DNA of 64,000 bases from Clostridia bacterium (GTDB lineage Bacteria > Bacillota > Clostridia > Oscillospirales > CAG-272): NCBI GenBank assembly GCA_017501545.1, contig JAFVWS010000023.1:31967-95966 (forward strand). Reading direction: 5' to 3'. Of the stretch, positions 8,509-61,050 are shown one piece after another (the stretch's first letter is position 1; each line of letters begins with the position of its first letter). Below the pieces are notes generated by a model. That model saw only the letters and a program-made list of their open reading frames with translations, searched no databases and was not told the DNA's origin. Made by a program: the position numbers and the translations under genes.

Positions 8509-8544
8509 TATTATAAGCGCTAAATGGCGCGAAGGGTGGTATTT

Positions 8545-9033: not shown

Positions 9034-9051
9034 CAAAGGCAGGATAATAAA

Positions 9052-37754: not shown

Positions 37755-38030
37755 TTAAATACGGTGCATTGAATTGAAAATGTCCTCGTGCATTACGCGA
37801 ATGTCAAGACCACGGCTTGTGCCAAGGTCGCCGAGTGCTTTTTGGAAAACTGCGAAGTCACTTTCCATCTTTTCTATCTCTACTAACATAATCATAGCAA
37901 AGTAGTCCTTCAAGACACTTTGTGTGATATCGACAATATTCACCTTGTGCTTCGCGCACTCCATGCTTACGTCAGCAATAATACCTACTGAGTCCTTACC
38001 TATAACAGTTACAACCGCTTTCATTTTCAA
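37755..38030 (-). CDS. ACT domain protein (UPF0237)
   Basis: AVVTVIGKDSVGIIADVS, the ACT fold signature. ~90 aa. Confidence 0.8.
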   Translation of the reverse strand: MKMKAVVTVIGKDSVGIIADVSMECAKHKVNIVDITQSVLKDYFAMIMLVEIEKMESDFAVFQKALGDLGTSRGLDIRVMHEDIFNSMHRI

Positions 38031-38058
38031 ATCTCCTTAAAATATATTTAATATATAG

Positions 38059-38087
38059 ATTATATCACCAGCGCACGCGTATGTCAA
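38059..38087 (-). promoter_or_regulatory. Sigma-A promoter of the ACT-UPF0210(-metY-metA) transcription unit
   Basis: Minus strand TTGACA (38087-38082), 17 nt, TATAAT (38064-38059). Confidence 0.6.
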
Positions 38088-38176
38088 GAGCAGTTTTTTA
38101 GCAAAAATTCAAAACTGTACCGCTCTGTACCGGTTTGACTGTGAGAGAATATAAATGCAAGGGAAAGGAGGTCAAC

Positions 38177-39967
38177 TTGAAGAAGGAAGCATTGACAATA
38201 AATGATTTAACAGCAAAAAGGCGCGTCCTTTGGGAAAAGCATCACGATATAAAGCTTGACAGTGAGCTTGTACGCGCCATAGCCGACAAAATTCTCGACA
38301 CAGATTCAATACGTGACGAGGTGATAAATAAGCCGGAGCTACTAATTGAAGCGTGCTTTACCATAACCGACAAAAAAAGACGTAGCGTTCCATTCTTTTT
38401 AAACGAGGTTCAAAAAGACTTTTTGTCAAGAATATTGACACTGGGTCGCCAAAAACCTTATTTTGTACTAAAAGGAAGACAGCAAGGATTTACTACCTTG
38501 ATCACTGGTATGATGCTTGCAAATGCGATTGTAAAAAGGAATTTTTCAGGCTTTACGGTTGCAGACAGAGACGATAACACTCGTTCGATTTTCACCGACA
38601 AGGCAAAGCTTATGTACTCACTTTTACCATCAAGGCTTAAGCCGACAGAAAAATTCAACTCAGTGGGTGAGCTTTACTTTGATAAGCTAAATTCCTCGTG
38701 GAGGATAGCCTCTGCAACCTCAAACGTTGGTAGAAGCCGTACTCTTTCGTTTATTCACTACTCCGAGGTTGCATTTTTCAAATGTCCACTTAGCGATTTG
38801 CAAAAATCAATTGCCGAGGCAGCAACCGAGGATGCATTATGCATTTACGAAACGACAGCAAATGGCTTTAACGACGCAAAAAGGCTTTGGGACAGTGGCA
38901 CGTGCATAAATCTTTTCTACGAGTGGTGGAAAACCTCCGAATACGCATCAAAGGATCACGAATACCTAAAAAACCCCGACACGTGGCTTAAAAACAGACT
39001 TTTGTCACTGAAAAAGCGAGGCTTGAATGATGACCAGCTTGCGTGGTATGCAAAGAAATATCACTCTTACATTGATAAAAGCGCGATAAGGCAAGAATAT
39101 CCGTGCTCTCCCGAGGAGGCGTTTGTTACAAGTGGTGGCTCTGTGTTTGATACGGAGAAGATATCAAACTATCTAAGCCGTGGCACATTCAACTCACGCC
39201 GTGGATATTTTTCTTATAAGCTTCGTCCCGAGACAATGTATTCTCCAAGCGGAGAAATATACAGCTACAAAAGCACTATTAGTGAAATTTCCTTTGTTGA
39301 AAGCGAAGATGGTTACATTTCTATTGTTACCGAGCCACGTGCAACTATTGAGGGTGGTAGCATTTTGGCTAACCCCTACGTTATCGGTGCGGACACCGCT
39401 GGCACGGGCGAGGACTACTTTTCAGCAAAGGTTATAGACAACACAAGTGGTGCGTGCGTGGCTACTCTACACGTAAAAAATATGGACGAAGACCTTTTTG
39501 CACACCAGCTTTACTGCCTTGGAAGGTACTATCACGACGCACTAATTGCTGTGGAGATTAATTATTCCAGACACCCAGTAAGGGTTTTACGAGAGCTTGA
39601 ATATAAAAACCTATACTCCTCTCGCACCTTTAGCAGTAGCGAAAGAGGTGGAGAGTATGGCTTTTTGACTACATCAGTATCAAGACCAATAATAATTTCC
39701 AACCTAATTTCTATAATGAGAGAAAATATTGAGCTTGAGACTGACCGTCAAACCCTTATGGAAATGACAACCTTTGTAAGGCGCGAGGACGGAAAAATTG
39801 CCGCCGCAAACGGTAGCCACGATGACCTTGTTATGGCAAGTGCTATTGCACACTTCGTCTCCTCCTCGTTTGCCCATAGTCCAGTTTTGGTTGGTCAAAG
39901 AAAGGAATTTATAAGTATGCATTTTTCGCCTCCTACCTTGCAAAATGAAGCCTACATGGAGTGGTAA
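38177..39967 (+). CDS. terL: Phage terminase large subunit
   Basis: Walker A-like VLKGRQQGFTT, coupling motif IHYSEVAF, C-terminal RNaseH-like nuclease (IGADTAGTGEDYF ... GSHDDLVMA). TTG 38177 is preceded by AAGGAGG. Confidence 0.85.
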   Translation: MKKEALTINDLTAKRRVLWEKHHDIKLDSELVRAIADKILDTDSIRDEVINKPELLIEACFTITDKKRRSVPFFLNEVQKDFLSRILTLGRQKPYFVLKGRQQGFTTLITGMMLANAIVKRNFSGFTVADRDDNTRSIFTDKAKLMYSLLPSRLKPTEKFNSVGELYFDKLNSSWRIASATSNVGRSRTLSFIHYSEVAFFKCPLSDLQKSIAEAATEDALCIYETTANGFNDAKRLWDSGTCINLFYEWWKTSEYASKDHEYLKNPDTWLKNRLLSLKKRGLNDDQLAWYAKKYHSYIDKSAIRQEYPCSPEEAFVTSGGSVFDTEKISNYLSRGTFNSRRGYFSYKLRPETMYSPSGEIYSYKSTISEISFVESEDGYISIVTEPRATIEGGSILANPYVIGADTAGTGEDYFSAKVIDNTSGACVATLHVKNMDEDLFAHQLYCLGRYYHDALIAVEINYSRHPVRVLRELEYKNLYSSRTFSSSERGGEYGFLTTSVSRPIIISNLISIMRENIELETDRQTLMEMTTFVRREDGKIAAANGSHDDLVMASAIAHFVSSSFAHSPVLVGQRKEFISMHFSPPTLQNEAYMEW

Positions 39968-40126
39968 ATGTTTATTTCAAAGAAAAAATTACAAGAAATC
40001 GAGAACAAATTAGCGCGTCTTGAAAAGAAGCTGGTTTGCCTCGAAAGCAAGAAAACAGCCGACCCTGTGGATGAAATTTCATATAAGGAGGTCGTTGACG
40101 AATGGTTAAATGGAAAGAAGAATTAA
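39968..40126 (+). CDS. Small coiled-coil protein (52 aa), unannotated in the ORF track
   Basis: The ATG abuts the terL stop (TAAATG). Translation MFISKKKLQEIENKLARLEKKLVCLESKK... Its end overlaps the portal start by 25 nt. Confidence 0.35.
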   Translation: MFISKKKLQEIENKLARLEKKLVCLESKKTADPVDEISYKEVVDEWLNGKKN

Positions 40127-41706
40127 AGTCAGAATTAACCCCTTCGTATCATTTATATCAAGATGCCCTTAGTAGTCAGCTTAGGATGGGTTTGCGTGTT
40201 AAAATACCTGAATGTGTTGATTTTTACGAGGGTCGCCAATGGCCACCTGCCACAGAAAACACCAAAAATCTGCCACGGCCGGTTGTAAACGTCGTCAAAA
40301 TGATTTGCAGAAGTAAAAAGGGAGCCATTTTGTCTACTCCCGTTAAAATTCACTATAAAAGCTACTCTCCATATACCGACATAGAGCGCTTTAACGCATT
40401 TGCGACAAGCGTTTTCAGAGAAATCGGTCAGGATGAGCTTGATAGATTAGCAATCGACGACGCAATCAAGAAGGGCTCCTACTTTTTTCATTATTTTTGG
40501 GACAAGGAGTCAATTTCAAGGGAAAGTGGCGAGGTCGGCGCGCTTTCTTGTGAGCTAATCGACCCTCTAAACATCTTTTTTGCAAATCCAGCTGAAACAA
40601 ATGAGCAGAAGCAGGATTGGATTATGATTAGCTCGCGAATAAAGACGGAAAAAATCAAAAATATGGCTGACCCGGACGCCGATACAACACTGCTCATGCC
40701 CGACGGAGACGAAAACGACAACAAAACAACGCTTCTAACGCGCTATTTTAGAGTTGGAAACGACGTTTTTTGTGAAAGACAGACTAAGTTTTGTATAATT
40801 TCTAAGCCGTTTAACATTATTCCAGCACCTTTTGATAAGAAAAGCAAGGCGCAAGGGGGCAAGAGGAAGGAGCGTATTCTCTACCCTATTGTTTGTGGGC
40901 AGTACGAAAGACGTGAAAATTCAATATACGGAATGGGCGAGGTTGAGGGCTTAATTCCTAACCAAAAGGCAATTAATTTCAACATTGCAATGAGCCTTTT
41001 AAATGCTCAGCAGTGTGCTTGGGGCAAGTATGTTGCTCTTCCAAATGCGTTAAACGGACAAAAAATTTCAAACGTCCCAGGACAAGTTCTTGTTGACTTT
41101 TCAGGCACTGGCGAGGGTATCAAAAGACTACCGGAATCAGAGCTTTCAAGGGCGCCGATGGAGCTGACCACTGCGCTCGAGGAGCTTACAAGGTCAGTCA
41201 GTGGTGCATCAAGCGTGATGACTGGTGAAATAAGCGGGACAAGCCTTTCTGGCGCTGCAATTGCATATCTGCAATCCCAAGCGCAGGTGCCAATTGAGGA
41301 ATTAAAAAGCTCCTTTTGGTTTGCAAAGCGCAAGCAGGGCATGGTCGTTGCGCAGTTCTTAAAGCATTTTTACCTCAAGCACGCGTACATAAAAATTAGC
41401 CCTGACAAGAAGTGTGACGGCGTATTTGACGAATTTTCATCACGCGATTTCGAGTCGTCACTTTTTGAGGTTTACGTCGAAGCTATCGGTGGCACAAAAG
41501 CGTCCTTAGCGTCCGACATTTCGTTGCTTGATAGTTGTCTTAAGGCAGGTAAAATTTCGCTTGAAACCTATATTCGAGCTTACCCTGCGTCTGCAATCAC
41601 TAACAAAGAAGAGATACTCAAGCAAATCAAGCTTGAAAAGGATTCAGAGGTTGAAATTTTACGAAAGGAGCTCAAGGAGCTAAAGGAAAAGTATGCAGAA
41701 TTCTAA
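40102..41706 (+). CDS. Phage portal protein
   Basis: ~530 aa directly after terL. DFYEGRQWPP motif near the N-terminus, typical of portal families. C-terminal coiled coil. Confidence 0.8.
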   Translation: MVKWKEELKSELTPSYHLYQDALSSQLRMGLRVKIPECVDFYEGRQWPPATENTKNLPRPVVNVVKMICRSKKGAILSTPVKIHYKSYSPYTDIERFNAFATSVFREIGQDELDRLAIDDAIKKGSYFFHYFWDKESISRESGEVGALSCELIDPLNIFFANPAETNEQKQDWIMISSRIKTEKIKNMADPDADTTLLMPDGDENDNKTTLLTRYFRVGNDVFCERQTKFCIISKPFNIIPAPFDKKSKAQGGKRKERILYPIVCGQYERRENSIYGMGEVEGLIPNQKAINFNIAMSLLNAQQCAWGKYVALPNALNGQKISNVPGQVLVDFSGTGEGIKRLPESELSRAPMELTTALEELTRSVSGASSVMTGEISGTSLSGAAIAYLQSQAQVPIEELKSSFWFAKRKQGMVVAQFLKHFYLKHAYIKISPDKKCDGVFDEFSSRDFESSLFEVYVEAIGGTKASLASDISLLDSCLKAGKISLETYIRAYPASAITNKEEILKQIKLEKDSEVEILRKELKELKEKYAEF

Positions 41707-42286
41707 AAAGCACGAGGAAAACGGTGCAATGAACGAAAAATTTGAGCAATTAACAATAGATGCTTCAAATCTTGAGTCAAAAGCAGAGGAAAATATTCTA
41801 AATTCCACTAACAACTTACCAGAAAAAGGCAGCAAATCCACAGGTAAAACGTGTAAAGACGAGCTCGTTGAAAACGCAAAAACACCCGACCCAGTGTCTG
41901 AGTTTGGCACTTTTAATGTGGAATCAACGACAGAAAATACTATTAGCGATGAAGATGATAGCTTACTATTTTCCAAACTATTTCCGGGCGTTTCGCGCGA
42001 AAGTGTCGAAAACGACGAAGTTTTCAAGCTTTTTTCAAAAAGTAGGCTGAAAAATGCACCATTTTCAGTGATTTACAGTGATTTTCGCGCTTTAGTTGAT
42101 AAAATTAGCCAGAGTGAGAGAGAAAAGCTTGCTTTTAGTGCGAAGGTAGCTAATTCAAGCCCTGGCGCCCTTGCTTCAAGCGCTACCGACGACTCTTTCT
42201 TTACAAAAGAGCAGGTTTTGAGAATGAGCAAGGAGCAAATCGCAAGAAACTACCAAAAAATAAGACAAAGTCAAGAGAGATGGTAA
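41693..42286 (+). CDS. Phage capsid scaffolding protein (probable)
   Basis: Acidic, low-complexity ~197-aa protein between portal and capsid genes. C-terminal FFTKEQVLRMSKEQIARNYQKIRQS resembles scaffold C-termini. Overlaps the portal stop. Confidence 0.6.
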   Translation: MQNSKKHEENGAMNEKFEQLTIDASNLESKAEENILNSTNNLPEKGSKSTGKTCKDELVENAKTPDPVSEFGTFNVESTTENTISDEDDSLLFSKLFPGVSRESVENDEVFKLFSKSRLKNAPFSVIYSDFRALVDKISQSEREKLAFSAKVANSSPGALASSATDDSFFTKEQVLRMSKEQIARNYQKIRQSQERW

Positions 42287-42493
42287 ACCGAAGGCCTTAC
42301 GCATCTTGGCGTCAAATTTGGGCGCTGTGAGCGTCTAAGAGGCGTTTTTTAAAGAGTTTAAGCAATACTGAGTAAATTAGCGGGCGCTGAAGGGAGGGCT
42401 CCTTAAGCCGTTATTTGTGCAGTGTGTCCCGCAAAGGTAAAATCCTTTTTCTTCGCAACTACGCGACTCAGTCGCAATATAAAGGAGAACATT

Positions 42494-43336
42494 ATGGCTT
42501 ATTCAAATTTTATTCCATCAGTTTGGTCAGAATCAATCAACCGAGAGCTTGAGCGCGCTTGTGTCTTCGCCGAGGACTGTAACCGTCAATACGAGGGTGA
42601 GGTTTCAAAGAAGGGTGACAGCGTTCACATTCTTGGCGTTGGCAAGCCAACAATCAAGTCACTCTCTCGTGAAAACGCAAGCGGAGAGATTGACGCCGCC
42701 GAGGAGGTAAGCGACACATCCGTAATTCTTGGCATCAACCAAATCAGATATTTCAACTACAAGGTGGGCGACATTGACAAGGCGCAAGCAATTGGCGGAC
42801 TTATGGATGCCCTTTCCGAGGAAACAAGCGAGGGTCTTGCAAACGAAATCGACAAGTACATTGCCGAAATGGTGCTTGACGAAAGTGTTAGCAAGCTCAC
42901 AGCTACACCAACAGTAGTTACAAAGGAAAACGTCCTTTCAATTCTTGACGATGCAATCGAGGCACTACAAGAAAACGATGTCAACATGGCAAGCGGTGTT
43001 ACAGTAACAGTTTCACCACGCTTTTACAAGCTATTCAAGCAAGCATACAGCGCCATTGACACCGGCAACAGCGACATGCTCAAAAACGGCAAAGTGGCTA
43101 CGTACGGCAACGTGACCGTCAAGCTTTCAAACAACGTTGCAAAGAGCGACAGTGGCGCGACTGACAACATTATGATCAGATCCAAGCGTGCCATCGCATT
43201 TGTGAACCCAGTTACTCACACAGAGGCTTATCGCCCAGAGAAATCCTTTGCCGACGCAGTCAAGGGTTATGCTCTTTTTGACGGCAAGGTGGTAAGACCC
43301 AAGGAAATCATCAACGTTAACGTAAAATACGCTTAA
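42494..43336 (+). CDS. Phage major capsid protein (probable HK97-fold)
   Basis: 280 aa in the position after the scaffold gene. N-terminal FIPSVWSESINRELE is typical of small major capsid protein families. ATG 42494 has an AAGGAG RBS. Confidence 0.7.
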   Translation: MAYSNFIPSVWSESINRELERACVFAEDCNRQYEGEVSKKGDSVHILGVGKPTIKSLSRENASGEIDAAEEVSDTSVILGINQIRYFNYKVGDIDKAQAIGGLMDALSEETSEGLANEIDKYIAEMVLDESVSKLTATPTVVTKENVLSILDDAIEALQENDVNMASGVTVTVSPRFYKLFKQAYSAIDTGNSDMLKNGKVATYGNVTVKLSNNVAKSDSGATDNIMIRSKRAIAFVNPVTHTEAYRPEKSFADAVKGYALFDGKVVRPKEIINVNVKYA

Positions 43337-43403
43337 TTGGTCTAATTTCGCTTTATTCCGCTGTTTAGGCAACGCACCGCAGCTCGCAAAAGCACAAGAG
43401 CAA

Positions 43404-43440
43404 AGGAACACAGTCTTTTCGACTGTGTTCCTTGTTTTGT
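43404..43440 (+). terminator. Strong rho-independent terminator closing the head module
   Basis: AGGAACACAGTC-ttttc-GACTGTGTTCCT followed by TGTTTTGT. Confidence 0.8.
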
Positions 43441-44135
43441 ATATTTATTTAATTTTATTGTATAATTATACTTTATTTAAAATATGTCAACCATATTATG
43501 CCAAGCCCTGTGTTTGTTTGTTACATTTTGTTAACATTTGGTTTATAAATATTTATTCATCGTTTTTATGTAAATTTAACAGCAAAAAATTGATTTTAAA
43601 AAAAGATTTTGCTCGGTGGAAAATCAAACGATGCTAAAAAATCGCCGCAAAGCCTTATAGTAAAAGGGCGCACAAGAGATTTTTCATTCTTTTTTCTCTC
43701 CTTGGCGTTTTTTCAAAAAAATCGCAAAAAATCTGTACAAATCCATATAGCAAAAGCGCCGAGGGCAAAAAATTTATCGTTTTACAGCAGTTGTGAAAAA
43801 CCAGCGTAAAAGCCTCAAAAAGCAAGTCGCTATAAGGCTCAGGACGGAATTTTAACGGCACCAAAGAGGATTTTATACTTATATGTAAAAACGCGCCTAT
43901 TTCGGCACAATCAGCCGAGCATATAGCTGTTTTCAGCCACTTGCGTACTCCGGCAGTGCATTTGTTACCGCTTTGCAGACTTCTCTCTACCGTTTGTCAA
44001 GATGCGACAATAAAAGTGCTAATTTTACCACACGCTTTGGCATTTTTCGCCGTCGAGAAATGTTATTATAATAGTGGAAATATTATTTCCAAATTTATTA
44101 AATTTAATATTCAAAAGCAAGAAAAAGGAGTCAAA

Positions 44136-44933
44136 ATGAAGGAAGAAAAAGAGGTATTCAAAGAGGTATATTCCATAGGCGTAGACAAAATCTCGCCCAA
44201 CCCAAATCAGCCGAGAAAGGACTTTTCAGACGACGCAATTCTGAAATTAGCAAGCAGCATAAAGCAGTTCGGAATCATCCAACCACTATGCGTGCGCGAG
44301 TGCGAAAACGGCTACGAATTAATATCAGGTGAAAGGCGCTTAAGGGCAGCCAAGGAGCTTGGTATGGCATTTGTGCCGTGCATAATCAGCGAGGCAAGCG
44401 ACGAAAAAAGTGCCGAAATGGCAATTATAGAAAACATCATCAGACAAGATTTAAACGTATTCGAGGAGGCCGAAGCAATCGAGGTTTTGATTGATACATA
44501 TTGCTTGACACAGGAGCAAATTGCCGAAAAGCTAAGTGTCAGCCAGTCGTTTATTGCCAACAAGCTAAGGCTTTTAAGGCTAAGTGCAGGCGAGCGTGAA
44601 AAAATTCTGAAAAACAAGCTAACAGAGCGCCATGCGAGAGCCCTTCTAAGAATATTTGATCCGGATATACGCGCAAAAGCCCTCGACGCCTTCATAGGGG
44701 AAGGATTAAACGTCTCAAACGCCGAGGAGTACGTTGATAAGCTGCTTTCAAAATCAAGCCCACAAAAGTCCAAAAGGCGCGCGTACAAAAGCATCGGCGC
44801 GTTTTATGATTCAATTAACAGAGCAATATGCGCAGTTGAAAACGCAGGAATAAAGATAAAAAGCAGAAAAATAGAGAGCGACGAGTACACAGAGCTAACA
44901 ATCATCGTGCCCAAGGAAAGCGCTTGTGTGTAA
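44136..44933 (+). CDS. noc: ParB-family protein, Noc-like paralogue
   Basis: ParB box ISPNPNQPRK, GERRLRAAKELG, HTH LTQEQIAEKLSVSQSFIANKLRLLRL. ATG 44136 has AAAGGAG. The track's upstream extension lacks an RBS. Confidence 0.8.
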   Translation: MKEEKEVFKEVYSIGVDKISPNPNQPRKDFSDDAILKLASSIKQFGIIQPLCVRECENGYELISGERRLRAAKELGMAFVPCIISEASDEKSAEMAIIENIIRQDLNVFEEAEAIEVLIDTYCLTQEQIAEKLSVSQSFIANKLRLLRLSAGEREKILKNKLTERHARALLRIFDPDIRAKALDAFIGEGLNVSNAEEYVDKLLSKSSPQKSKRRAYKSIGAFYDSINRAICAVENAGIKIKSRKIESDEYTELTIIVPKESACV

Positions 44934-45205
44934 GAGGCAACACAAGCCAGAAAGCCCCCAAAAACCATAAAAAAGCGCTTAAAAGTGGCAAAAAGCTCGG
45001 GCTTACGTTGAAAAGTTCAAGCTTTGTTGACAAGGCAACAATTTGGCGCACAAAGGCAATTGCCATAAGCCTTGGCGAGCAGTGAACGTTGTTTACGAAT
45101 TTCCATATTTTTCCATTTTTCGACAAAATTCAAAGAGTTTTCAACGTGTTTTTCAACAAGAGGTTGATTTTTGATAAAAATCGCACGTTGAAGTAGTCAT
45201 TTCGT

Positions 45206-45240
45206 AAAAGAGCAACCCTTGATAGGTTGCTCTTTTTCTT
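45206..45240 (+). terminator. Rho-independent terminator about 270 nt after noc
   Basis: AGAGCAACC-cttgata-GGTTGCTCT followed by TTTTTCTTTT. Confidence 0.6.
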
Positions 45241-45368
45241 TTCAAGCACTATCAAGCCAAATGACGAGCGCCAGCGCATTTAGAGAACACAGAAAAAAGG
45301 CAGAGGCGACAAAAAGATAAGCTTTAGCGCCCACCAATGCAACGACCAAATACGATAAATTCCGACAT

Positions 45369-45384
45369 TGTTTCACGTGAAACA
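45369..45384. promoter_or_regulatory. parS: parS site (perfect)
   Basis: TGTTTCACGTGAAACA, the perfect 16-bp ParB-binding palindrome. Confidence 0.85.
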
Positions 45385-45799
45385 CATATTTCGGCGAGCG
45401 TGAAGTCCGTAAATAAGCATTTTGCAGGCACATCAAATAAGACACACAGTGACACCCACAAAAACCACCGTAAGAAAAGAGGCATCACTGTGGCAAAAGT
45501 GGCGCGGACAAGCCGCGCATAAGCAAAAAAAGGAGAGGCAGCATGGTCAACAAGCAAGGGCGAGGGGTGGTGCGAGCAAGGACGAGGGGGTGGCACAAGC
45601 CAAAAGAGAGCGCATAGTGTTCTGTAAACCGCACCAAGCTAAAGGGAAAAATCGCACACAAGGAAGGGTCAATGGCAGGTCGCCAATCCACCATGCCAAA
45701 GGGCGCAAAAATTGCGTATGACAAAGGCACAGGCTACACCACCCCGCCCCGAGACCACTTGCCTTGCAGAAAAAACTATCGCTTTTACCAAAAACGCCT

Positions 45800-45815
45800 T
45801 GTTTCACGTGAAACA
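45800..45815. promoter_or_regulatory. parS: parS site (perfect)
   Basis: TGTTTCACGTGAAACA. Confidence 0.85.
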
Positions 45816-46107
45816 TCCCCCCACGCGTCACCATACAAAAACCCAAGTGCAACGGAAAACAGAAAGTGCACATTTTGTAAAACGTACATAGTGAATAGTT
45901 AAAAGAGGCACACAAAGGCGAGTGCGCGAAAACCAACCCCTGTCGGAGGGAGCCACAAACGCCAACTAAGCCGTTATATTCGCAACAGCCGACATCCACA
46001 AAAAGCACAAAGCTTCCTAGAAAAGTAGAGGCTTTGTGCGCCCGTTTTGACCTCTTTTTCTCATACTATGGTGCCCTCACATCAATAGCTCAACTAAGCA
46101 ATTTCTG

Positions 46108-46123
46108 TGTTTCACGTGAACAA
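46108..46123. promoter_or_regulatory. parS: Degenerate parS site (one half intact, 1-nt deletion in the other)
   Basis: TGTTTCACGTGAACAA. Confidence 0.55.
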
Positions 46124-46590
46124 TACACAAAATAAGCAAAATTGTAGGCACGAAAAGGCGTCAAAATCACAATAACGAAGAGGCACGTCCATTCAAGCTC
46201 CATAGATAGCGCTTGGGTGGCAGAAGCTCAGCTCTCTGTAAAGCGCCCATGCCGAAGGCTCCTTTTGAGAGAAAGCAACCAGAAAATCAGCGTTGATTTC
46301 AGAAATGCACGCCCTCGTTTAGCGATTCAAGGCCGATGTGGGGGCGGGTTTAAAAGGGGCCCGCCACATTCTTTCAAAAATTAGAAAGGTGTAGCATTGC
46401 AAAAAGCAGAAAAGCGTAGCATTCAAAAAGCAGAAAGCTCCACGTTTTTGAGACAAACAAAAGTAGTCTGGTTTAAAAGCTTGCTTTAAAGTTGGCACGT
46501 TAAAGTGGTTCATAAATGGTTTTTAGCAAAAGGAAGCTCCGAAACGGCTACGCAACACCAACACCCTCTTCCCTTCTCACTTACCGGCTG

Positions 46591-46606
46591 CGTTTCACGT
46601 GAAACA
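46591..46606. promoter_or_regulatory. parS: parS site (one mismatch)
   Basis: CGTTTCACGTGAAACA, about 85 nt upstream of soj. Confidence 0.8.
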
Positions 46607-46692
46607 TTTTAATTTTTTTGAAAATTTCTATTGATTTTGTCGATTTTTAATGATATACTTTTAGTAAGAACTTTAGTAGAGGAGCTAAAACT

Positions 46693-47472
46693 GTGCAAAT
46701 TGTTTCTTTTGCAAATCAAAAGGGCGGTGTTGGCAAGACTACGTCAGCCCTTAATTGCGCTACAATGCTTGGCGTGCTTGGCAAAAGAGTTTTGCTTTTG
46801 GATTTAGATCCACAAGCTAACAGTACAAGCTCGCTTGGAATATCAAAAAACGGCGTGAAGTATACCATTTACGAGGTTTTATCCGGAAAAGCAAAGGATA
46901 TTTCTCAAGCAATCATCGCAACTAAATTTAAAAACCTATCTATTATCCCATCAAATATGGCTTTAGCAAGCTTAGAAACAGAGCTTAGTATGCAGGGCGG
47001 CCGTGAAGCATATCTCAAAAGAACGTTGAGCGAGCTTGAAAAAACAGATTTATTTGATTACGTCATCATCGATTGTCCACCATCGCTTGGAATGTTGACA
47101 ATCAACGCTTTAGTAGCAAGCACCGGATTAATTATTCCTATGCAATGCGAATATTTCGCCCTTGAAGGACTTACGCAGCTAATGATGAGCGTAAAAGCGA
47201 TAAAAAACAGATACAATCCCAACCTAAATATCACCGGAATATTAATTACGATGTTCACTCCGCGCTTCAGACTTTCAAAAGAGGTGCTTGCGGAGCTTGA
47301 AAATTATTATTTTGACATTGTTTTTGAGCAAAAAATTTCTCGCAGTATAGTCATCAGTGAATCATCGAGCTATGCTGAGCCGCTTTATTATTATTCCAAA
47401 TACTCAAAATCGAGTCTGGAATATATGGCAGTAACAAAGGAAATCATTACTCGAATAGAAGGAATTATATAA
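46693..47472 (+). CDS. soj: Chromosome partitioning ATPase ParA/Soj (GTG start)
   Basis: Deviant Walker A NQKGGVGKTT, LLLDLDPQ, IIDCPPSLG. GAGGAG RBS. Confidence 0.92.
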   Translation: MQIVSFANQKGGVGKTTSALNCATMLGVLGKRVLLLDLDPQANSTSSLGISKNGVKYTIYEVLSGKAKDISQAIIATKFKNLSIIPSNMALASLETELSMQGGREAYLKRTLSELEKTDLFDYVIIDCPPSLGMLTINALVASTGLIIPMQCEYFALEGLTQLMMSVKAIKNRYNPNLNITGILITMFTPRFRLSKEVLAELENYYFDIVFEQKISRSIVISESSSYAEPLYYYSKYSKSSLEYMAVTKEIITRIEGII

Positions 47473-56447: not shown

Positions 56448-56780
56448 TTATGTTAATTCAACCAACGAGCCTCCATGATGAATTGCTATTTTTATAGCAT
56501 CGAAATACTCATCGTTGTAGACATGTTTTAATCTCTTAAGAATTTTGATTAAAAGGTCCACATCCTTTTTATTTTCATCGTATATCTTGTCAAGCCCAAT
56601 TATTTCTATGTTTAAATTTTTGTTGCTCAATAAAAGATCTACCATGCAATCCCAAAAAGCTGACCAATTACGACCATAATGGTCGGGAAAGTCAAATTCT
56701 TTCGCTATAATTGAATGAAAATATCGCCAGTCCTTCATGCTTGTAAAATCAAGTATATACTTCTCTTTATACTCATACAT
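56448..56780 (-). CDS. Barstar-family ribonuclease inhibitor (immunity protein)
   Basis: FHSIIAKEFDFPDHYGRNWSAFWDCMVDL matches the barstar pattern (F.FP.YYG.N.DA..DCL). Immediately downstream of the barnase-domain gene. Confidence 0.8.
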   Translation of the reverse strand: MYEYKEKYILDFTSMKDWRYFHSIIAKEFDFPDHYGRNWSAFWDCMVDLLLSNKNLNIEIIGLDKIYDENKKDVDLLIKILKRLKHVYNDEYFDAIKIAIHHGGSLVELT

Positions 56781-56791
56781 GTTATGCCTCC

Positions 56792-57376
56792 TTATGCTGT
56801 AATTTCATAAAATGTTTGATAATGGTCATAGGTTACAAAAATCAACCCGTCGTTAGAATAAATTATCCTTTGGCGATTTCGGAATCCTCCATTGTAATTT
56901 ATATCTGCCTCATACCATACTCGCCCTGATACAGAAGGAAGCTTGTATTCATCATTATTATACAAATCTCCACCGATCATTTTGTTTGGACACACCTTAG
57001 CCAAATTTCTTTTTTTGGAAATCCAGCCTTGTTCCACTGCTTGCTTTTTTGTGATATAACAATCTGGCAAAATTCTGTTATAAAACAAAGAAAAATCTGC
57101 TCCGTCTTTTCCAGCGCTTGTTGCCTTACCCGCCTGCTTTGTTCGCATACGAACCCATTTACACCTGCAATTTGTATGTATATTCACCGCCACTTCTGTT
57201 CGCAAGAGCAAAACAGACGATGCTTCAACTATTTTCCCATGATTATCAATACATTTTTGACAGGTATGGAGTGACAATTCAGACATCCAATTTGCCCATT
57301 TGATACTGTTTCCCGCAAGCCTTCTTTCTTGGAGCAAATCATCGACTACAGTTACCAACTTATTTTCTTCCATCAT
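56792..57376 (-). CDS. Truncated MuF (SPP1 gp7-like head morphogenesis) domain fused to a barnase-type ribonuclease toxin
   Basis: MuF C-terminal motif HTCQKCIDNHGKIV...HTNCRCKW. The C-terminus YITKKQAVEQGWISKKRNLAKVCPNKMIGGDLYNNDEYKLPSVSGRVWYEADINYNGGFRNRQRIIYSNDGLIFVTYDHYQTFYEI is near-collinear with Bacillus barnase. Confidence 0.85.
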   Translation of the reverse strand: MMEENKLVTVVDDLLQERRLAGNSIKWANWMSELSLHTCQKCIDNHGKIVEASSVLLLRTEVAVNIHTNCRCKWVRMRTKQAGKATSAGKDGADFSLFYNRILPDCYITKKQAVEQGWISKKRNLAKVCPNKMIGGDLYNNDEYKLPSVSGRVWYEADINYNGGFRNRQRIIYSNDGLIFVTYDHYQTFYEITA

Positions 57377-57414: not shown

Positions 57415-57614
57415 TTTCTTTAATTATATATTAGCGTATAAAAACCGGTACCAAACGGAACTCTTTTTCTTTTATGAGCTTAGAGCAAAAAAACAGGGCA
57501 GAGAATGGGCTAAGCCCAAAGCTCATTACATTCGTTTCGGGGAACCCCTACACAAGCAGAAAGAGAGAACAAATCGGTTGTTCGCCGAAATGTCCTCTCT
57601 TTTTCTGTTGGTTG

Positions 57615-57815
57615 AATGAAATCGTGGCTATACCACGATGAAATCTTCGCTTTACTCAGATGAAATCCAAGGCGTTGCCTTGGATGAAATCAAATCCGTC
57701 TGTTATAACCCTGCGAAGCAGGATTTCATCGCGAAAGCGATTTCATCCACCATAGGTGGATTTCACCCGTCGAAGACGGATTTGACTGCGTGATACTCCG
57801 TTAAGAGTATCACGC
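57615..57815. repeat. Multi-hairpin array with constant GATGAAATC / GATTTCATC linkers
   Basis: Hairpins at 57621-57639, 57665-57685, 57710-57722, 57728-57741, 57745-57761, 57767-57779 and 57788-57815. Linker GATGAAATC occurs 4 times in the left half. Its reverse complement GATTTCATC (and variants) occurs 4 times in the right half. Confidence 0.7.
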
Positions 57816-59180: not shown

Positions 59181-59459
59181 TTAGAGTAGGTAGTATGGTA
59201 GGTCGTCGCCTATTGCAAGATGCACAAAGCCTTGCTTTTTTGGTGTTGCTGTCTTTTTTGTTGGCTTCTTTGCTGTTTTCTTTGGGGCCTCCTTAGCTGG
59301 CGCTTCTACTACTGTTATAGGCTCTGTTACAGGCACTTCAGCCTTTGGTGGTTCCTCTGTCGTTGCAATAGCGCTGTTTTCCATATCAGGCGCTGTGCTT
59401 TTTACGTTGGAATAGCCACTATTGGAAACTCTTTTAATCGCATTTTTACCTATTGGCAT
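59181..59459 (-). CDS. Small disordered basic protein, candidate partner/adaptor of the ParA-like ATPase
   Basis: AAGGAGG RBS 9 nt upstream. The start overlaps the ParA-like stop by 14 nt. Basic N-terminus MPIGKNAIKRV, P/A/E/K-rich low-complexity core, conserved-looking C-terminus GFVHLAIGDDLPYYLL. Confidence 0.55.
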   Translation of the reverse strand: MPIGKNAIKRVSNSGYSNVKSTAPDMENSAIATTEEPPKAEVPVTEPITVVEAPAKEAPKKTAKKPTKKTATPKKQGFVHLAIGDDLPYYLL

Positions 59460-60237
59460 ATTCTACTACCTCCTTTGCAAGACTTCTATACTCAATAGCG
59501 CTTCTTGAATACTTTTTGTAAGCAACAACGGGCTTGCTATTGTCCTGTGACCATTCAATTGCACTATCAACCTTAACGTAGGTGTCAAAAACCCTTACGT
59601 CCTCCGACTCACGAAGGGATTTTAGAGTTTCCTTGAAGTAATTCTTTCTCTCGTCTGCCTTAGTCACCATAATTCCCATGATTTCAAGGCGAGGTGCCAT
59701 TTCTCTTACCTTGCCGATAAAATCAAACATATTTGCAAGGCCGAAAAGTCCCCAAGGGCTTGCCTCAACAGGGATAATAACATAGTCAGAGGCGCACATT
59801 ACGTTCATAACCCAGCCACCAAGCGTTGGGGGAGAGTCAATTAATATGTAGTCATAATAGCCACGCGCCTTAACCGGCTCAAGACACTTTTTAAGTATAA
59901 ACTCTCTTTGCCACTTTGTAAAAAGGTCAAACTCAATTGAGCTCATAAGTGAGGTTGATGGTACAATATCAAGCCCCTCATATTCTGTTGGCACAATAAA
60001 GTCAGAAAGGTCCCTTTCCTCCTTTAGGGCAGTATATATATTTTTTCCGTTGCTTGCGTACTCTAAAACCTTTTCCTCGTCAAAGAAGGAAAGTGTTAAA
60101 TTTATCTGCATATCGCCATCTATAAGTAGTACCTTTTTGCCCATCATAGAAAGCGCACAGCCGATATTTGAGCAGGTTGTGGTTTTTCCACTTCCGCCCT
60201 TGTTATTCGCAAACGCGATTACCTGAGTTTTGCTCAT
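59446..60237 (-). CDS. ParA/MinD-family ATPase encoded inside the microcompartment operon
   Basis: Deviant Walker A NNKGGSGKTT, LLIDGDMQ, ILIDSPPTLG. 4-nt overlap with the upstream eutP-like gene. Confidence 0.88.
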   Translation of the reverse strand: MSKTQVIAFANNKGGSGKTTTCSNIGCALSMMGKKVLLIDGDMQINLTLSFFDEEKVLEYASNGKNIYTALKEERDLSDFIVPTEYEGLDIVPSTSLMSSIEFDLFTKWQREFILKKCLEPVKARGYYDYILIDSPPTLGGWVMNVMCASDYVIIPVEASPWGLFGLANMFDFIGKVREMAPRLEIMGIMVTKADERKNYFKETLKSLRESEDVRVFDTYVKVDSAIEWSQDNSKPVVAYKKYSRSAIEYRSLAKEVVEYANR

Positions 60238-60689
60238 TTTCGCATAGCCTCCAATTCTTCTTCGTCATCTGCAAGGAATTCTATCAATTTATCAAGTCCC
60301 TCTCCTGTATAAGCACTGACAGGGAATATTTTCTTACAGCCTGCAAGCCGGAGCCATCTTTCAACCCTTTCCGGGTTGGCATCAGGCTTGTCAATTCCTG
60401 TGATAATTCCGACAACCTCACGATTTACAAGGCTTGTAATACAGGGTGAGAAAATAGAGTAGGGCTCATTTGCCGAAAGGACAAGCCCAACAACGTCCGC
60501 CTCGTACGCATAAAGCGCCAGTGCGCCACTTGTCTGCCTAAGCTCTGTATATTCGCCAGGGGTGTCTATTATCGTATCAAGATAATTTATGTACTGCGTT
60601 TTATAATAGTGAATATCCTCACCATTAAGCGCTTGTGTCAGGGTAGTTTTTCCTGCCGCAACCCTTCCAATTAAAATAATTTTTTTCAT
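60234..60689 (-). CDS. eutP: EutP/PduV-family small GTPase
   Basis: MKKIILIGRVAAGKTTLTQAL...IDTPGEY. Size and motifs match EutP/PduV. Confidence 0.85.
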   Translation of the reverse strand: MKKIILIGRVAAGKTTLTQALNGEDIHYYKTQYINYLDTIIDTPGEYTELRQTSGALALYAYEADVVGLVLSANEPYSIFSPCITSLVNREVVGIITGIDKPDANPERVERWLRLAGCKKIFPVSAYTGEGLDKLIEFLADDEEELEAMRK

Positions 60690-61048: not shown

Positions 61049-61050
61049 TG

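Follow-up and report, generated by a model that had tools for sequence, protein, structure and literature searches.

Our analyses indicate that the five-gene operon upstream of noc-soj-spo0J in the window (the whole 64-kb stretch of DNA that was analysed) is very probably a functional, domesticated viral head and packaging cassette. Since it is intact at one site in 26 or more species and has kept a phage-type late promoter, it is best regarded as a working viral heirloom and not as a dead remnant. Tentatively, we read it as a non-mobile cassette that would be fired in trans by related phages, with an outcome that could be GTA-like, satellite-like or interfering.

Gene content and layout of the cassette

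The five open reading frames of the initial annotation are all present on the plus strand, at the coordinates given there (Table 1). The abutting or overlapping junctions were also as claimed (39967/39968, 40102-40126 and 41693-41706), the second being the 25-nt overlap of the 52-aa ORF with the portal start, and the gene arrangement at the junctions in orthologous loci matches that in the window. The TerL frame opens at 38135, with its likely start behind a GGAGG ribosome-binding site, while the capsid frame opens at 42422, with an ATG as the most likely start. The strong terminator reported for the end of the operon was found, its 13-bp stem and T-run lying at 43403-43433. Domain assignments confirmed the neighbours as a metabolic unit on the left (ACT, DUF711, Cys_Met_Meta_PP and HTS) and noc-soj-spo0J on the right (a Noc-like ParB, Soj and Spo0J). 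The NCBI annotation lists all five cassette genes as hypothetical proteins. The spacer between the scaffold and capsid genes ranges from 73 to 460 nt among species and is not conserved; the weak hairpin downstream of the scaffold gene might act as a partial terminator and so set how much capsid is made relative to scaffold.

Table 1. Features of the cassette and of the second promoter-motif locus (positions in the window)
Feature	Position	Strand	Product	Basis
Putative late promoter	38112..38150	+		matrix score; same architecture in 25 orthologous loci
TerL gene	38177..39967	+	596 aa, TTG start	phrog_2, T4 gp17 nuclease
52-aa coiled-coil gene	39968..40126	+	52 aa	position kept in cassettes and phages
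Portal gene	40102..41706	+	534 aa	PF16510 P22_portal, phrog_156
Putative scaffold gene	41693..42286	+	197 aa	position, homology to phage counterpart
Weak hairpin and T-run, 3' of scaffold gene	42317..42339	+		consensus scan only
Major capsid gene	42494..43336	+	280 aa	phrog_267, PF11651, PDB 8E16 gp6
Intrinsic terminator, operon end	43403..43443	+		13-bp stem and T-run, folding z-score -4.2
MuF-end::barnase toxin and barstar pair	56448..57376	-		PF00545, Phage_Mu_F, phrog_115 and Barstar matches
Second late-promoter motif copy, AAAGAGTTCCGTTTGGTACCGGTTTTTATACGCTAATAT	57428..57466	-		25.3 bits

Three of the proposed gene identities were borne out by profile matches. TerL matched phrog_2 (E 4e-21), and its nuclease domain matched T4 gp17 in the PDB. 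Its motifs comprise a Walker A-like KGRQQGFTT, HYSE, ETTANG, IGADTAG, E-N-S and HDD, all of them unchanged across 24 of the 25 cassettes and across 50 copies from phages. The portal protein scored 52.4 bits against Pfam P22_portal (cut-off 26.1) and matched phrog_156 (E 5e-34). Cassette portals are 46 to 60% identical to phage portals and lack a C-terminal extension of approximately 80 to 100 aa that most phage copies have, the corresponding alignment columns being 0 to 6% occupied in cassettes versus 54 to 93% in phages. The capsid protein matched phrog_267 (E 3e-38), P22_CoatProtein (PF11651; 26.5 bits, cut-off 24) and, over its full length, capsid protein gp6 of PDB 8E16 (E 5e-33). It is of the HK97 type without an insertion domain, and its identity is 80 to 90% among cassettes and 72 to 86% to the nearest phages. 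With any phage in GenBank, the capsid protein shares no more than 37% identity and TerL no more than 30%.

The scaffold identity was reached on weaker evidence than the others, namely position, phage homology and a low-confidence structural model. The 197-aa ORF gave no match in family searches but is 29 to 50% identical to its positional counterpart in related phages. Conservation is highest over the C-terminal 100 aa, and the AlphaFold model is mostly helical with low confidence (pLDDT 54). We therefore refer to it as a putative scaffolding protein; it is shorter than its phage counterparts. The 52-aa protein also had no match in family searches, and its phage counterparts at the same position belong to families F14, F62 and F87 (60 to 80 aa).

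Conservation, inheritance and selection

Another 25 species-level genomes carry the five-gene cassette upstream of noc-soj-spo0J, so that it is present in at least 26 species, all of them uncultured gut Clostridia. The ACT-DUF711 left flank is kept in approximately 16 of the 25, and varies from one host clade to another, in the manner of ordinary rearrangement. None of the relatives carries a complete prophage at the site; they have the same five-gene cassette. TerS (F6), the adaptor (F7), F5 and F20 are absent from all 25 further loci, and no small terminase, adaptor, tail or lysis gene was found within 10 kb of the cassette in any of the 26 genomes.

TerL distances correlate with those of DUF711, MetY and Spo0J (Spearman 0.78, 0.73 and 0.74, respectively), as the distances of the host genes do among themselves (0.70 to 0.82), and dS is equal in the cassette and in the genes that flank it. 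Comparison across the genomes shows vertical inheritance of the cassette. The dN/dS values in cassettes (TerL 0.07 to 0.11, portal 0.08 to 0.11, capsid 0.01 to 0.09, scaffold 0.21 to 0.41) were set beside those in complete phages of the family (0.02 to 0.17, 0.05 to 0.15, 0.04 to 0.19 and 0.05 to 0.30, respectively), and by this measure show purifying selection on the cassette to be as strong as in living phages. A single frameshift was present in three of the 25 orthologous loci, all three being metagenome assemblies.

In the portal tree, the cassettes form a single clade in 99 of 100 bootstraps. In the TerL tree, they did so in 1 of 100 and clade C3 joined phage group Pb in 63, which points to either past exchange with phages or weak signal. 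Portal monophyly and the common loss of the C-terminal extension suggest a single origin of the cassettes.

The late promoter and its candidate activator

A direct repeat upstream of terL had been proposed as a possible operator. The repeat, CTGTACCG, is present at both positions (38115-38122 and 38125-38132), and the operator proposal is supported: the repeat is the pair of half-sites, with a period of 10, of a conserved late promoter typical of a phage family. The half-site pair is followed by a degenerate T-tract, an extended -10 element (TGaGAGAAT, 38142-38150), a conserved box, ATGCAAGGG, and then the GGAGG ribosome-binding site. With a 39-nt matrix derived solely from sequences of 14 other species, the window promoter scored 35.0 bits, against a maximum of 14.6 bits in 200 simulated 64-kb sequences. 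The block is retained directly before TerL in all 26 cassettes (the window and the 25 orthologous loci), always 25 to 60 nt before the gene, although the surrounding spacer is unalignable and dS is above 1.

Most of the related phages that were examined, IMG/VR viral contigs among them, have the same block upstream of TerS, and the late operon of the source phage family is the only known context of the cassette promoter. GTACC half-sites as in the cassettes occur in phage L018/L021, and the half-site variants GTATAG, GTACAC, GTACAG and GTACCA of the cassettes are seen again among phages. The first half-site, TGTACC, is conserved in most cassettes, which is as compatible with a stable regulator resident in the host as with a phage regulator that is broadly conserved.

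The source family consists of undescribed, podovirus-like temperate phages of approximately 40 kb, which still infect the same clade. Complete relatives of the source phage were also present in 8 of the 25 cassette-bearing MAGs, and identity between cassette and phage copies within one MAG was not elevated. Both adaptor homologues examined on long contigs were in complete prophages, and two further homologues were on contigs with a phage-type TerL. In many related phages the gene for F17, a protein of 130 to 145 aa that resembles Sigma70_r4 (E 7e-4; some clusters carry PF04545), ends approximately 20 nt before the late promoter, and F17 may act on the GTAYNG repeats. Right after this candidate activator gene, related phages carry the anti-defence genes Acb2/Tad1 and Tad2, which suggests an active arms race in these hosts.

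The F17 family is small, with only 122 clusters among 5.8 billion proteins, and the four clusters on contigs longer than 100 kb were all inside complete prophages. No F17 copy was detected in the 64-kb window using tblastn or in the 10 kb around all cassettes, and no host-resident copy was found in the window, these flanks or the F17 clusters on long contigs. It is somewhat probable that expression of the cassette depends on the late activator of the phage family, and we consider the chances evenly divided between an activator supplied by a phage and one encoded by an undetected host gene. The promoter could also be driven by a host regulator of another family or by a divergent F17. Prophages of the Pb group that reside in cassette-bearing MAGs carry other repeats, scoring below the matrix threshold, and are probably not the inducers.

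Other phage-like sequences in the window

The initial annotation stated that nothing else phage-like was adjacent and that the window had no further phage genes, a MuF/minor head protein among those listed. No relics of the TerS, adaptor, tail and activator genes of the phage family were found in the whole 64 kb using tblastn, but one weak MuF-type trace had been missed. A 194-aa protein encoded at 56792-57376 on the minus strand has a MuF-type end fused to a barnase RNase domain. It matched positions 68 to 110 of the 112 in Phage_Mu_F weakly (E 0.011), the minor head protein phrog_115 with E 0.002 and, in its barnase part, Ribonuclease PF00545 with E 1.5e-11. A barstar immunity gene follows the toxin gene (56448-56780, minus strand; Barstar E 2e-17). 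The MuF polymorphic toxins of temperate phages similarly have a MuF-type motif, a C-terminal toxin and the cognate immunity gene next to it. The window protein differs in having only the last approximately 45 MuF residues (weakly matched, E 0.011), a length of 194 aa, its own sigma-A promoter and a location outside any prophage.

The sole other copy of the promoter motif in the window, AAAGAGTTCCGTTTGGTACCGGTTTTTATACGCTAATAT, precedes this barnase pair (25.3 bits; the next best site scored 0.3 bits). It lies approximately 25 nt upstream of a canonical TTGACA-17-TATAAT promoter, with the same operator to -10 spacing as in L028, and five independent assemblies of this species all have it in identical form. 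The motif is absent upstream of the relatives of the barnase gene in other organisms. It is possible that the barnase pair belongs to the same regulon as the head cassette.

Comparison with known systems

In Faecalibacterium prausnitzii, a GTA is encoded by two operons 125 kb apart, GTA I with TerS-like, TerL, portal, scaffold, capsid and other genes and GTA II with tail and lysis genes (bioRxiv 10.1101/2024.11.15.623857, PMC12946183). Its particles are podovirus-like capsids of approximately 40 nm with no visible tail, package 8.4 to 8.9 kb of host DNA and are produced spontaneously in late stationary phase; a Christensenellaceae MAG showed near-whole-genome enrichment in a virus-like-particle fraction (bioRxiv 10.1101/2024.11.15.623857). 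In gene content the cassette is similar, being a podovirus-derived, chromosomal TerL-portal-scaffold-capsid operon of gut Clostridia, and both are conserved across species of one lineage. The remaining functions of the Faecalibacterium GTA are encoded elsewhere or, in some strains, were not found, and its particles have no obvious tail. GTA I, however, comprises ten ORFs over 10.5 kb, among them a TerS-like gene and additional structural genes, whereas the cassette consists of five genes over 5.3 kb and lacks TerS. The Faecalibacterium GTA also has a second locus, while none is known for the cassette, and the spontaneous production of that GTA contrasts with a cassette promoter that appears to be phage-activator-dependent.

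The GTAs of Rhodobacter capsulatus and other alphaproteobacteria are likewise domesticated phage structural clusters under vertical inheritance and purifying selection, and replication and integration genes are absent from both the Rhodobacter GTA and the cassette. Unlike the cassette, RcGTA keeps a TerS (with its specificity lost), a protease, connectors and a complete tail. The host-encoded activator GafA drives RcGTA under CtrA and quorum-sensing control, and RcGTA is of siphovirus type and unrelated to the cassette in sequence. The capsid-forming PICIs (cf-PICIs) obtain tails from a helper phage, with tail-less capsids as a real intermediate (bioRxiv 10.1101/2025.02.11.637232). They resemble the cassette in having their own capsid and packaging genes and no tail, but are mobile and self-packaging, with an integrase, regulator, primase-replicase, TerS and head-tail connectors; the cassette has none of these genes and co-diverges with its host.

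The head block of P22 (genes 3-2-1-8-5, encoding TerS, TerL, portal, scaffold and coat) has the same TerL-portal-scaffold-coat order, a portal of the same family, a separate scaffold and no prohead protease. In contrast, the cassette has no TerS, an additional 52-aa gene between TerL and portal, and a coat protein without the insertion domain of P22 coat. In RinA/ArpU-type phages of Firmicutes, a small sigma-region-4-like gene ends just 5' of the terS-proximal promoter, which drives the whole morphogenesis operon. The F17-promoter-TerS layout of the related phages appears analogous, although F17 matches Sigma70_r4 weakly (E 7e-4) and the cassette has no activator gene.

Alternative explanations

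The initial annotation had suggested a GTA-like machine, a capsid-forming satellite or a DNA-filled nanocompartment, none of which held as put forward. For the GTA-like machine, no small terminase, adaptor, tail or lysis gene lies within 10 kb in the 26 genomes. An autonomous GTA with split loci, as in Faecalibacterium, is a serious rival, although we consider it unlikely. The cassette would be a host-controlled locus I, with the adaptor, tail, lysis genes, regulator and maybe a TerS-like gene elsewhere, and random host DNA would be packaged. Such an arrangement has a precedent in the two separate Faecalibacterium operons (bioRxiv 10.1101/2024.11.15.623857), vertical inheritance and purifying selection are typical of GTAs, and the conserved first half-site fits a stable host regulator; yet TerL has no preceding TerS-like gene and directly abuts the promoter in all 26 loci, all six adaptor or F17 homologues examined on long contigs are inside full prophages, and no phage-like gene was found within 10 kb of the cassettes or, except for the MuF-end::barnase gene, in the window. 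It is improbable that the cassette serves pure anti-phage interference, its proteins co-assembling or competing with those of a related phage and poisoning heads or packaging with no useful particle, as a bacterial counterpart of gag-derived restriction factors. A decoy needs no competent terminase and one dominant-negative subunit would be enough, yet TerL motifs are invariant (24 of 25) with phage-like dN/dS and all five genes are kept; PADLOC gave no match to catalogued defence systems, and the phage capsid proteins have no sign of escape divergence. Against these points stand a phage-family late promoter with no resident activator found, which would time expression to the phage late phase, capsid identities of 72 to 86% to the nearest phages, which make co-assembly plausible, the shortened scaffold and the portal without its extension, and the arms race indicated by Acb2/Tad1 and Tad2.

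Contrary to the satellite as proposed, the cassette is not mobile, since it diverges in step with its host and carries neither an integrase nor a replication gene nor TerS. Even a minimal, helper-dependent five-gene element, repeatedly inserted at the noc site and using helper functions both to integrate and to transfer, is very improbable. Head and packaging genes without a tail, helper-like related phages in the same genomes and the interleaving of cassettes with phages in the TerL tree would fit such an element, but no excisionase was found either, att-like repeats were not noticed, cassette-host distances correlate as those of host genes do with dS equal to the flanks, the left flank is host-clade-specific as from ordinary rearrangement, the portal tree is monophyletic, and cassette and phage copies of one MAG are not elevated in identity. 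That the genes are an inert prophage remnant, not yet decayed, is in practice refuted by the comparative data, which strongly support the earlier view that this is not a randomly decaying stump. Prophage truncation could have occurred at this site, the five genes are annotated as hypothetical and three of 25 loci have one frameshift each; nevertheless, with dS >1 among species, 5.3 kb of reading frames, the junctions, the motifs and the 39-nt promoter are preserved, and dN/dS is 0.01 to 0.11 for TerL, portal and capsid. An encapsulin-like intracellular nanocompartment, filled with DNA or protein and without a phage link, is hardly credible: a minimal 280-aa HK97 fold of encapsulin-like size and the lack of a tail gene would suit it, but nothing speaks specifically for it, a portal and a terminase predicted to be active are under selection, no adjacent cargo protein bears a targeting peptide, viral procapsids are what typically come with a separate scaffold gene, and the promoter is a phage late promoter, suggesting interplay with phages.

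Proposed mechanism and implications

The genes were very probably cut from a podovirus-like temperate phage of approximately 40 kb and fixed in the chromosome by an ancient domestication. Genes of the ancestor for the small terminase, the late activator, head accessory proteins, adaptor, tail, lysis and lysogeny were lost, while the late promoter was retained and now abuts TerL. Under our preferred reading of a non-mobile cassette fired in trans, the host appears to have no cognate sigma-region-4-like late activator of its own, so the cassette would stay off unless the infection or induction of a related phage provides one. The cell would then build its own procapsids and a TerS-independent packaging motor beside those of the phage. 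Podoviruses assemble the tail stepwise on the filled head, so heads with a compatible portal could take the adaptor and tail of the phage, and the phage lysis genes would release them. Among the findings that count against this reading, the divergence of the portal (46 to 60% identity) and its missing C-terminal extension weaken the case for adaptor docking, and the cassette has no TerS, which bears on packaging start and DNA choice. That particles are finished with helper parts and carry DNA is conceivable but rather doubtful. If true, the cassette would correspond to a capsid-forming satellite that has no mobility of its own but diverts phage resources, and host DNA may be exported, a phage-triggered GTA-like outcome.

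Genes of the cassette and their identities

The five plus-strand ORFs proposed in the initial annotation were borne out in place by an ORF check and make up a compact cassette encoding TerL, a 52-aa protein, a portal, a putative scaffold and a major capsid protein (see the table for positions). The 52-aa ORF begins one base past the TerL stop and overlaps the portal gene by 25 nt, the 197-aa scaffold ORF overlaps the portal gene by 14 nt, and a 208-nt spacer, in which no element is kept across clades, precedes the capsid gene. The most likely TerL start is a TTG behind a GGAGG site. This codon is the TerL start in the window and several relatives, and three species (loci L019, L027 and L036 of the related loci compared) have no ATG, GTG or TTG at the expected position, which suggests that TerL initiation is deliberately weak or non-canonical. 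Apparent truncation of TerL in three other loci was rejected, since these merely have non-ATG starts.

Profile searches supported three of the protein identities. TerL matched phrog_2 (E 4e-21), its nuclease half matched T4 gp17 (E 1e-8), and it carries the ATPase motifs and RNase-H-like nuclease acidic residues of a large terminase, with invariant motifs. The portal matched Pfam P22_portal PF16510 at 52.4 bits (gathering threshold 26.1) and phrog_156 (E 5e-34), and the same precomputed PF16510 match was present in portal orthologues. The capsid protein aligned over its full length (residues 1-275) with PDB 8E16 gp6 (E 5e-33) and matched phrog_267 (E 3e-38); this homology to a capsid protein of solved structure marks it as an HK97-fold major capsid protein. 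The scaffold label stands in part: the protein has no family match, and the label is favoured by position, by homology to the gene at the same position in related phages and by a helical single-sequence AlphaFold model of low confidence (pLDDT 54), which was too poor for a fold search. NCBIfam and PADLOC returned no matches for any of the five proteins, which NCBI annotates as hypothetical proteins IKC16_04185 to IKC16_04205 of a 'Clostridia bacterium' MAG.

The terminator claimed at the end of the module is real, and the neighbours are as originally described, with ACT, DUF711, MetY-like and HTS genes to the left and Noc-like ParB, Soj and Spo0J to the right. An Rfam scan of 37900-46750 with E up to 1 gave sub-threshold chance matches only. 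A GC-skew turn near 38 kb was considered as an origin and rejected, as it follows gene orientation. The noc-soj spacer is unusual in being 1.76 kb long, non-coding and A-rich, with four parS-like sites; a gap of 0.8-1.8 kb is also found in orthologous loci, and conservation is limited to one block, followed by a hairpin, and to the soj promoter region. Elsewhere in the window, a microcompartment locus is suggested at the right end by an orphan ParA-like ATPase gene that adjoins genes for PduV/EutP and BMC-domain proteins.

Positions of features in the window and in related loci
Sequence	Feature	Position	Strand
Window	1606-aa highly repetitive protein	13786-18606	-
Window	Sigma-A promoter of the ACT gene	38059-38087	-
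Window	TerL gene (start TTG 38177)	38177-39967	+
Window	52-aa ORF	39968-40126	+
Window	Portal gene	40102-41706	+
Window	Putative scaffold gene (197 aa)	41693-42286	+
Window	Major capsid protein gene (start ATG 42494)	42494-43336	+
Window	Terminator	43403-43433	
Window	noc-soj spacer	44934-46692	
Window	Conserved block in noc-soj spacer	45094-45168	
Window	Hairpin after conserved block	45204-45242	
Window	parS-like sites, tgtttcacgtgaaaca	about 45371, 45801, 46110, 46593	
Window	Gene pair of 194-aa MuF-end::barnase protein and barstar	56448-57376	-
Window	Second copy of late-promoter motif	57428-57466	-
Window	Gut-1 RNA (Rfam RF01706)	57718-57788	-
Window	Orphan ParA-like ATPase, next to PduV/EutP and BMC-domain genes	59446-61842	-
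L009	Duplicated operators upstream of TerL	9823-9950	
L010	Duplicated operators upstream of TerL	about 9650-9950	
L013	Duplicated operators upstream of TerL	2284-2442	
L023	Second late promoter and DnaD-like gene	8520-9759	
L214	Anti-defence genes before TerS	8642-9093	
L216	Anti-defence genes before TerS	8658-9029	

Chromosomal and phage forms of the module

TerL has thousands of relatives. The best 120 are full-length and 59-71% identical to it, many of them lying on 100-400 kb contigs from uncultured gut Clostridia. Two such contigs have an identical arrangement, in which ACT-DUF711 is followed by TerL, a gene for 52-53 aa and the portal, scaffold and capsid genes, with noc-soj-spo0J beyond them. 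When GTDB species were scanned with one genome each, 230 relatives were obtained, from which 80 loci were kept. Mapping the window proteins onto these 80 loci and clustering all ORFs separated two architectures. The chromosomal form (type C), found in 25 species and the window, consists of the five genes only and has portals of 520-580 aa. It is followed by noc-soj-spo0J in all but one locus and flanked on the left by ACT-DUF711 in two of the three host sub-clades. Across the 26 genomes, the 10 kb on either side of the cassette contain no further phage gene, the flanks being housekeeping genes.

The phage form (type P) starts with a 160-200-aa HTH protein that is weakly small-terminase-like (family F6), followed by TerL, a 60-80-aa gene, a longer portal (mostly 600-700 aa), the scaffold, often a 120-aa gene, the capsid gene, often a 105-120-aa gene, and a 210-aa protein with weak similarity to the adaptor of podovirus SU10 (family F7, E 5e-4). 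An 830-1000-aa protein and more structural genes end the block. On long contigs it runs on into tail fibre, holin, amidase and giant polyvalent MuF_C/ART proteins, and upstream are ERF, SSB, replication-organiser, DnaC-like and methylase genes. IMG/VR contigs of this source phage family reach about 37-43 kb. GenBank phages are distant, with at most 37% identity in the capsid protein and 30% in TerL, so the family is undescribed. A type P copy was present on another contig in 8 of the 25 cassette-bearing MAGs.

Two complete phages (L214 and L216) carry Acb2/Tad1 hairpin and Tad2-like anti-defence genes between the candidate late-activator gene and TerS, which places these genes at the head of the late operon. 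The 1606-aa repetitive protein in the window, probably a surface protein, has repeats in common with proteins of family F18 beside several phage and cassette loci.

Inheritance and selection of the cassette

Pairwise TerL distances among type C loci correlated with those of DUF711, MetY and Spo0J (Spearman 0.78, 0.73 and 0.74), as the host genes did with each other (0.70-0.82). Mean amino-acid distances were 0.35 for TerL, 0.41 for the portal and 0.17 for the capsid protein, beside 0.30 for Soj, 0.27 for Spo0J and 0.41 for Noc, and in moderately diverged type C pairs dS of the cassette genes equalled that of the flanking genes. Values of dN/dS in type C were 0.07-0.11 for TerL, 0.08-0.11 for the portal, 0.01-0.09 for the capsid protein and 0.21-0.41 for the scaffold; pairs of type P phages gave 0.02-0.17, 0.05-0.15, 0.04-0.19 and 0.05-0.30, respectively. 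Constraint on the cassette genes is undiminished. The ATPase and nuclease motifs of TerL, without exception, are unchanged across 24 of 25 cassettes and 50 phage copies. Single frameshifts were seen in three loci, in TerL (L074) or the portal (L023 and L037), all of them in MAG assemblies. The claim that the module is not a randomly decaying prophage is thus strongly supported, undiminished constraint and invariant TerL motifs excluding a decaying stump.

The cassette portals form one clade (99 of 100 bootstraps) and all lack the C-terminal 80-100 residues present in most phage portals. The boundaries are also common to all cassettes: the promoter abuts TerL, and nothing follows the capsid gene. 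A single origin is argued from this portal tree, the common truncation and the identical boundaries, although the neighbor-joining tree of TerL recovered a cassette clade in only 1 of 100 bootstraps and placed one host sub-clade together with a phage group in 63 of 100. Mean TerL identity is 0.65 both within cassettes and between cassettes and the nearest phages. We read this pattern as probably one ancient capture, the branches being deep and star-like, with a possible past exchange of TerL between cassettes and phages. Recent gene conversion between cassette and prophage in the same MAG was not found, identities being no higher than the general average between the two forms.

A late promoter of phage type in front of TerL

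The spacer before TerL ranges from 146 to >600 nt across type C and is not alignable, yet a block located 25-60 nt before TerL is kept in every cassette. It comprises AAAGTGTACCG-n4-GTACCGG, about seven consecutive T, ATGCAATAAT as an extended -10, TTGCAAGGG and the ribosome-binding site. The CTGTACCG repeat, previously suggested to be an operator, proved to be the half-site pair of this conserved phage late-promoter block. A 39-nt matrix built from 14 other species gave the window TerL promoter 35.0 bits, the highest null score being 14.6. With the same matrix, the same architecture was found before the small-terminase gene in most type P phages examined, viral contigs included. The phage half-sites vary by lineage (GTATCG, GTATAG, GTACAG, GTACAC, GTACCA, CTAACGG), and several of the cassette variants also occur in phages. 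The L018/L021 phage has GTACCA-n4-GTACCA with a T-tract and -10 identical to those of the cassette promoter. Scanning the fetched loci with the matrix was far more informative than exact-pattern searching of IMG/VR, where two exact operator patterns had no match. Reading the conserved -10 region as a sigma-K, -E, -F or -G promoter was rejected by eye.

Several further arrangements were seen around this promoter. A perfect, TG-extended sigma-A promoter (TTGACA-17-TATAAT) serves the divergent ACT gene, in contrast to the activator-type TerL promoter 30 nt away. In four loci (L006, L007, L008 and L011) a 670-aa gene that is not annotated (family F42) lies on the opposite strand between ACT and the cassette promoter; the promoter is still attached to TerL in these species. 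Before TerL in L009, L010 and L013, the GTACCG-n4-GTACCG operator has been duplicated two or three times, and behind each extra copy is a GC-rich hairpin repeat (gcctccc..gagggag), as though a small repeated element had carried them. L023, from a cassette-bearing species, has the late promoter twice in full: the second copy drives the gene of a DnaD-like replication initiator (phrog_270, E 6e-25), which is inserted directly upstream of the TerL promoter.

Candidate activator and missing functions

In many of the phages a gene encoding 130-145 aa (family F17) ends about 20 nt before the late promoter. The protein is weakly similar to Sigma70 region 4 (E 7e-4); some relatives have PF04545 and some are named sigma-24-like by JGI. 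By position and type, F17 is the obvious candidate for the late activator, and we liken it to RinA, the late activator of staphylococcal phages. A collection of 5.8 billion proteins held 122 F17 clusters, mostly on phage-size contigs, and all four of those on contigs >100 kb were inside complete prophages. The adaptor F7 was represented by 382 clusters; the two examined among those on long contigs lay in complete prophages, and two more share contigs with a type P TerL. No host-resident adaptor or late activator was found in this HMMER search, the six long-contig homologues examined all lying in complete prophages; if the host had its own activator or adaptor, dozens of long-contig clusters would be expected, as for TerL. 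No TerS homologous to F6 was found in the cassettes, where the promoter abuts TerL and leaves no room. Relics of F6, F7, F17 and two further phage families (F5 and F20) were absent from the 64-kb window and from within 10 kb of any cassette.

A second promoter copy before a toxin-immunity gene pair

Only one other copy of the motif occurs in the window. It scored 25.3 bits (the next best site scored 0.3 bits), has the operator-to-(-10) spacing of the cassette promoter, lies about 25 nt upstream of a canonical sigma-A promoter and is identical in five independent assemblies of the window species. The gene behind it encodes a 194-aa protein whose residues 29-73 weakly resemble the C-terminal end of Phage_Mu_F (E 0.011; positions 68-110 of 112 only of PF04233, 16.9 bits with a cut-off of 29.6) and minor-head-protein PHROGs (E 0.002). 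Its C-terminal half is a barnase RNase (E 1.5e-11), and a barstar gene is next (E 2e-17). The pair thus has the C-terminal toxin domain and following immunity gene of MuF polymorphic toxins, without the full N-terminal MuF head-morphogenesis domain. A Gut-1 RNA (55 bits, gathering score 50) lies between a GDSL lipase gene and the second motif copy.

The motif was absent upstream of barnase relatives in 45 metagenome loci, which have a sigma-A promoter only, as do full-length relatives of the 194-aa protein in other organisms, so any regulon link would be specific to the window species or to an unsampled clade. No barnase or barstar homologue was found within 10 kb of any other cassette. The second motif may be a stray promoter copy, a reading drawn from the extra copies that also occur upstream of TerL in L009, L010, L013 and L023, or it may reflect species-specific recruitment of the toxin-immunity pair. 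It hints that the toxin might belong to the same phage-triggered regulon.

Comparison with known systems and possible function

The initial annotation had offered three alternatives: a GTA-like machine, a capsid-forming satellite and a DNA-filled nanocompartment. A nanocompartment of the encapsulin kind does not fit, given that portal and terminase are present under selection and no cargo gene is adjacent. Nor is the cassette a satellite. It resembles capsid-forming PICIs in having capsid and packaging proteins and no tail, but it has neither integrase, excision and mobility functions nor a replication module, TerS or packaging site of its own, and its locus is fixed and co-diverges with the host. 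Evidence on induction by a helper is indirect: the late promoter of the phage family is kept and no resident activator was found. None of the five proteins matches a PADLOC defence-system model, which puts the cassette outside the catalogued defence systems. The GTA-like alternative holds in part. As in GTAs, the cassette is a chromosomal, phage-derived structural cluster without replication, integration or lysogeny genes, vertically inherited and under purifying selection; of two features of known GTAs, it lacks a small terminase, typically with relaxed DNA specificity, and a delivery apparatus was not seen in the regions covered, tail and lysis genes being absent from the cassette, the 10-kb flanks (25 genomes) and the 64-kb window.

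The line of cells has long kept exactly the genes for a procapsid (portal, scaffold and capsid protein) and for DNA translocation (TerL), along with the phage late promoter and a short, conserved partner protein. A promoter in which activator half-sites replace the -35 region would be expected to decay unless the activator were regularly present. Since this promoter is maintained and the activator was found only in phages, trans-activation by infecting or induced related phages is, we infer, the most economical reading. That TerL catalysis is intact favours real packaging. Terminases without TerS can start packaging at DNA ends in vitro, as established for T4. Podovirus tails assemble stepwise on filled heads, as established for P22, so that the adaptor, tail and lysis proteins of a phage could finish cassette heads and release them if the truncated portal is compatible. 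The outcome might be interference, export of host DNA, or both. Tentatively, and at well short of an even chance, we propose a 'Trojan head': a host-owned cassette, kept by a whole lineage of gut Clostridia, that would stay silent until a related podophage supplies the late activator, whereupon TerS-independent, tail-less heads would compete for or steal the adaptors, tails and DNA ends of the phage. Chief among the rivals is an autonomous split-locus GTA such as the one of Faecalibacterium, which has a TerS-like/TerL/portal/scaffold/capsid operon and a distant tail-and-lysis operon and forms podovirus-like particles of about 40 nm with 8.4-8.9 kb of host DNA (bioRxiv 10.1101/2024.11.15.623857). 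The published GTA I operon lies at CP030777 2536737-2546346 (RCH50849.1, RCH50851.1). No Faecalibacterium genome was among the best 80 of the 230 loci of our genome scan.

The known cases of domesticated phage parts are complete machines, namely GTAs, tailocins, contractile injection systems and encapsulins. The cassette is a head shell and DNA pump only, without a DNA-recognition subunit, a tail or any resident activator found, and we see in it a variant form among domesticated phage-particle systems. A literature search found no description of it, and there is a substantial chance that a phage-triggered, helper-completed mode has not been described before. If the 'Trojan head' proposal is true, the cassette would be a counterpart of phage satellites, but fixed in the chromosome and not selfish, as well as a bacterial analogue of endogenous-virus capsid genes co-opted against exogenous relatives, and it might serve phage defence and phage-triggered host DNA export at the same time. 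Gut viromes are rich in bacterial DNA packaged in capsids, for which the responsible loci are mostly unknown; the cassette is relevant to gut gene transfer, being annotated only as hypothetical proteins and escaping prophage callers. Its promoter is defined, its five genes are small and there is a candidate family for the activator, all of which suits experiment. The cassette was retained while at least 26 species diverged, and selection on it matches that in living phages in strength. Either head and motor alone are useful to the cell, or the cell relies on incoming phages for completion, which, if true, would be a new mode of host-phage interplay.
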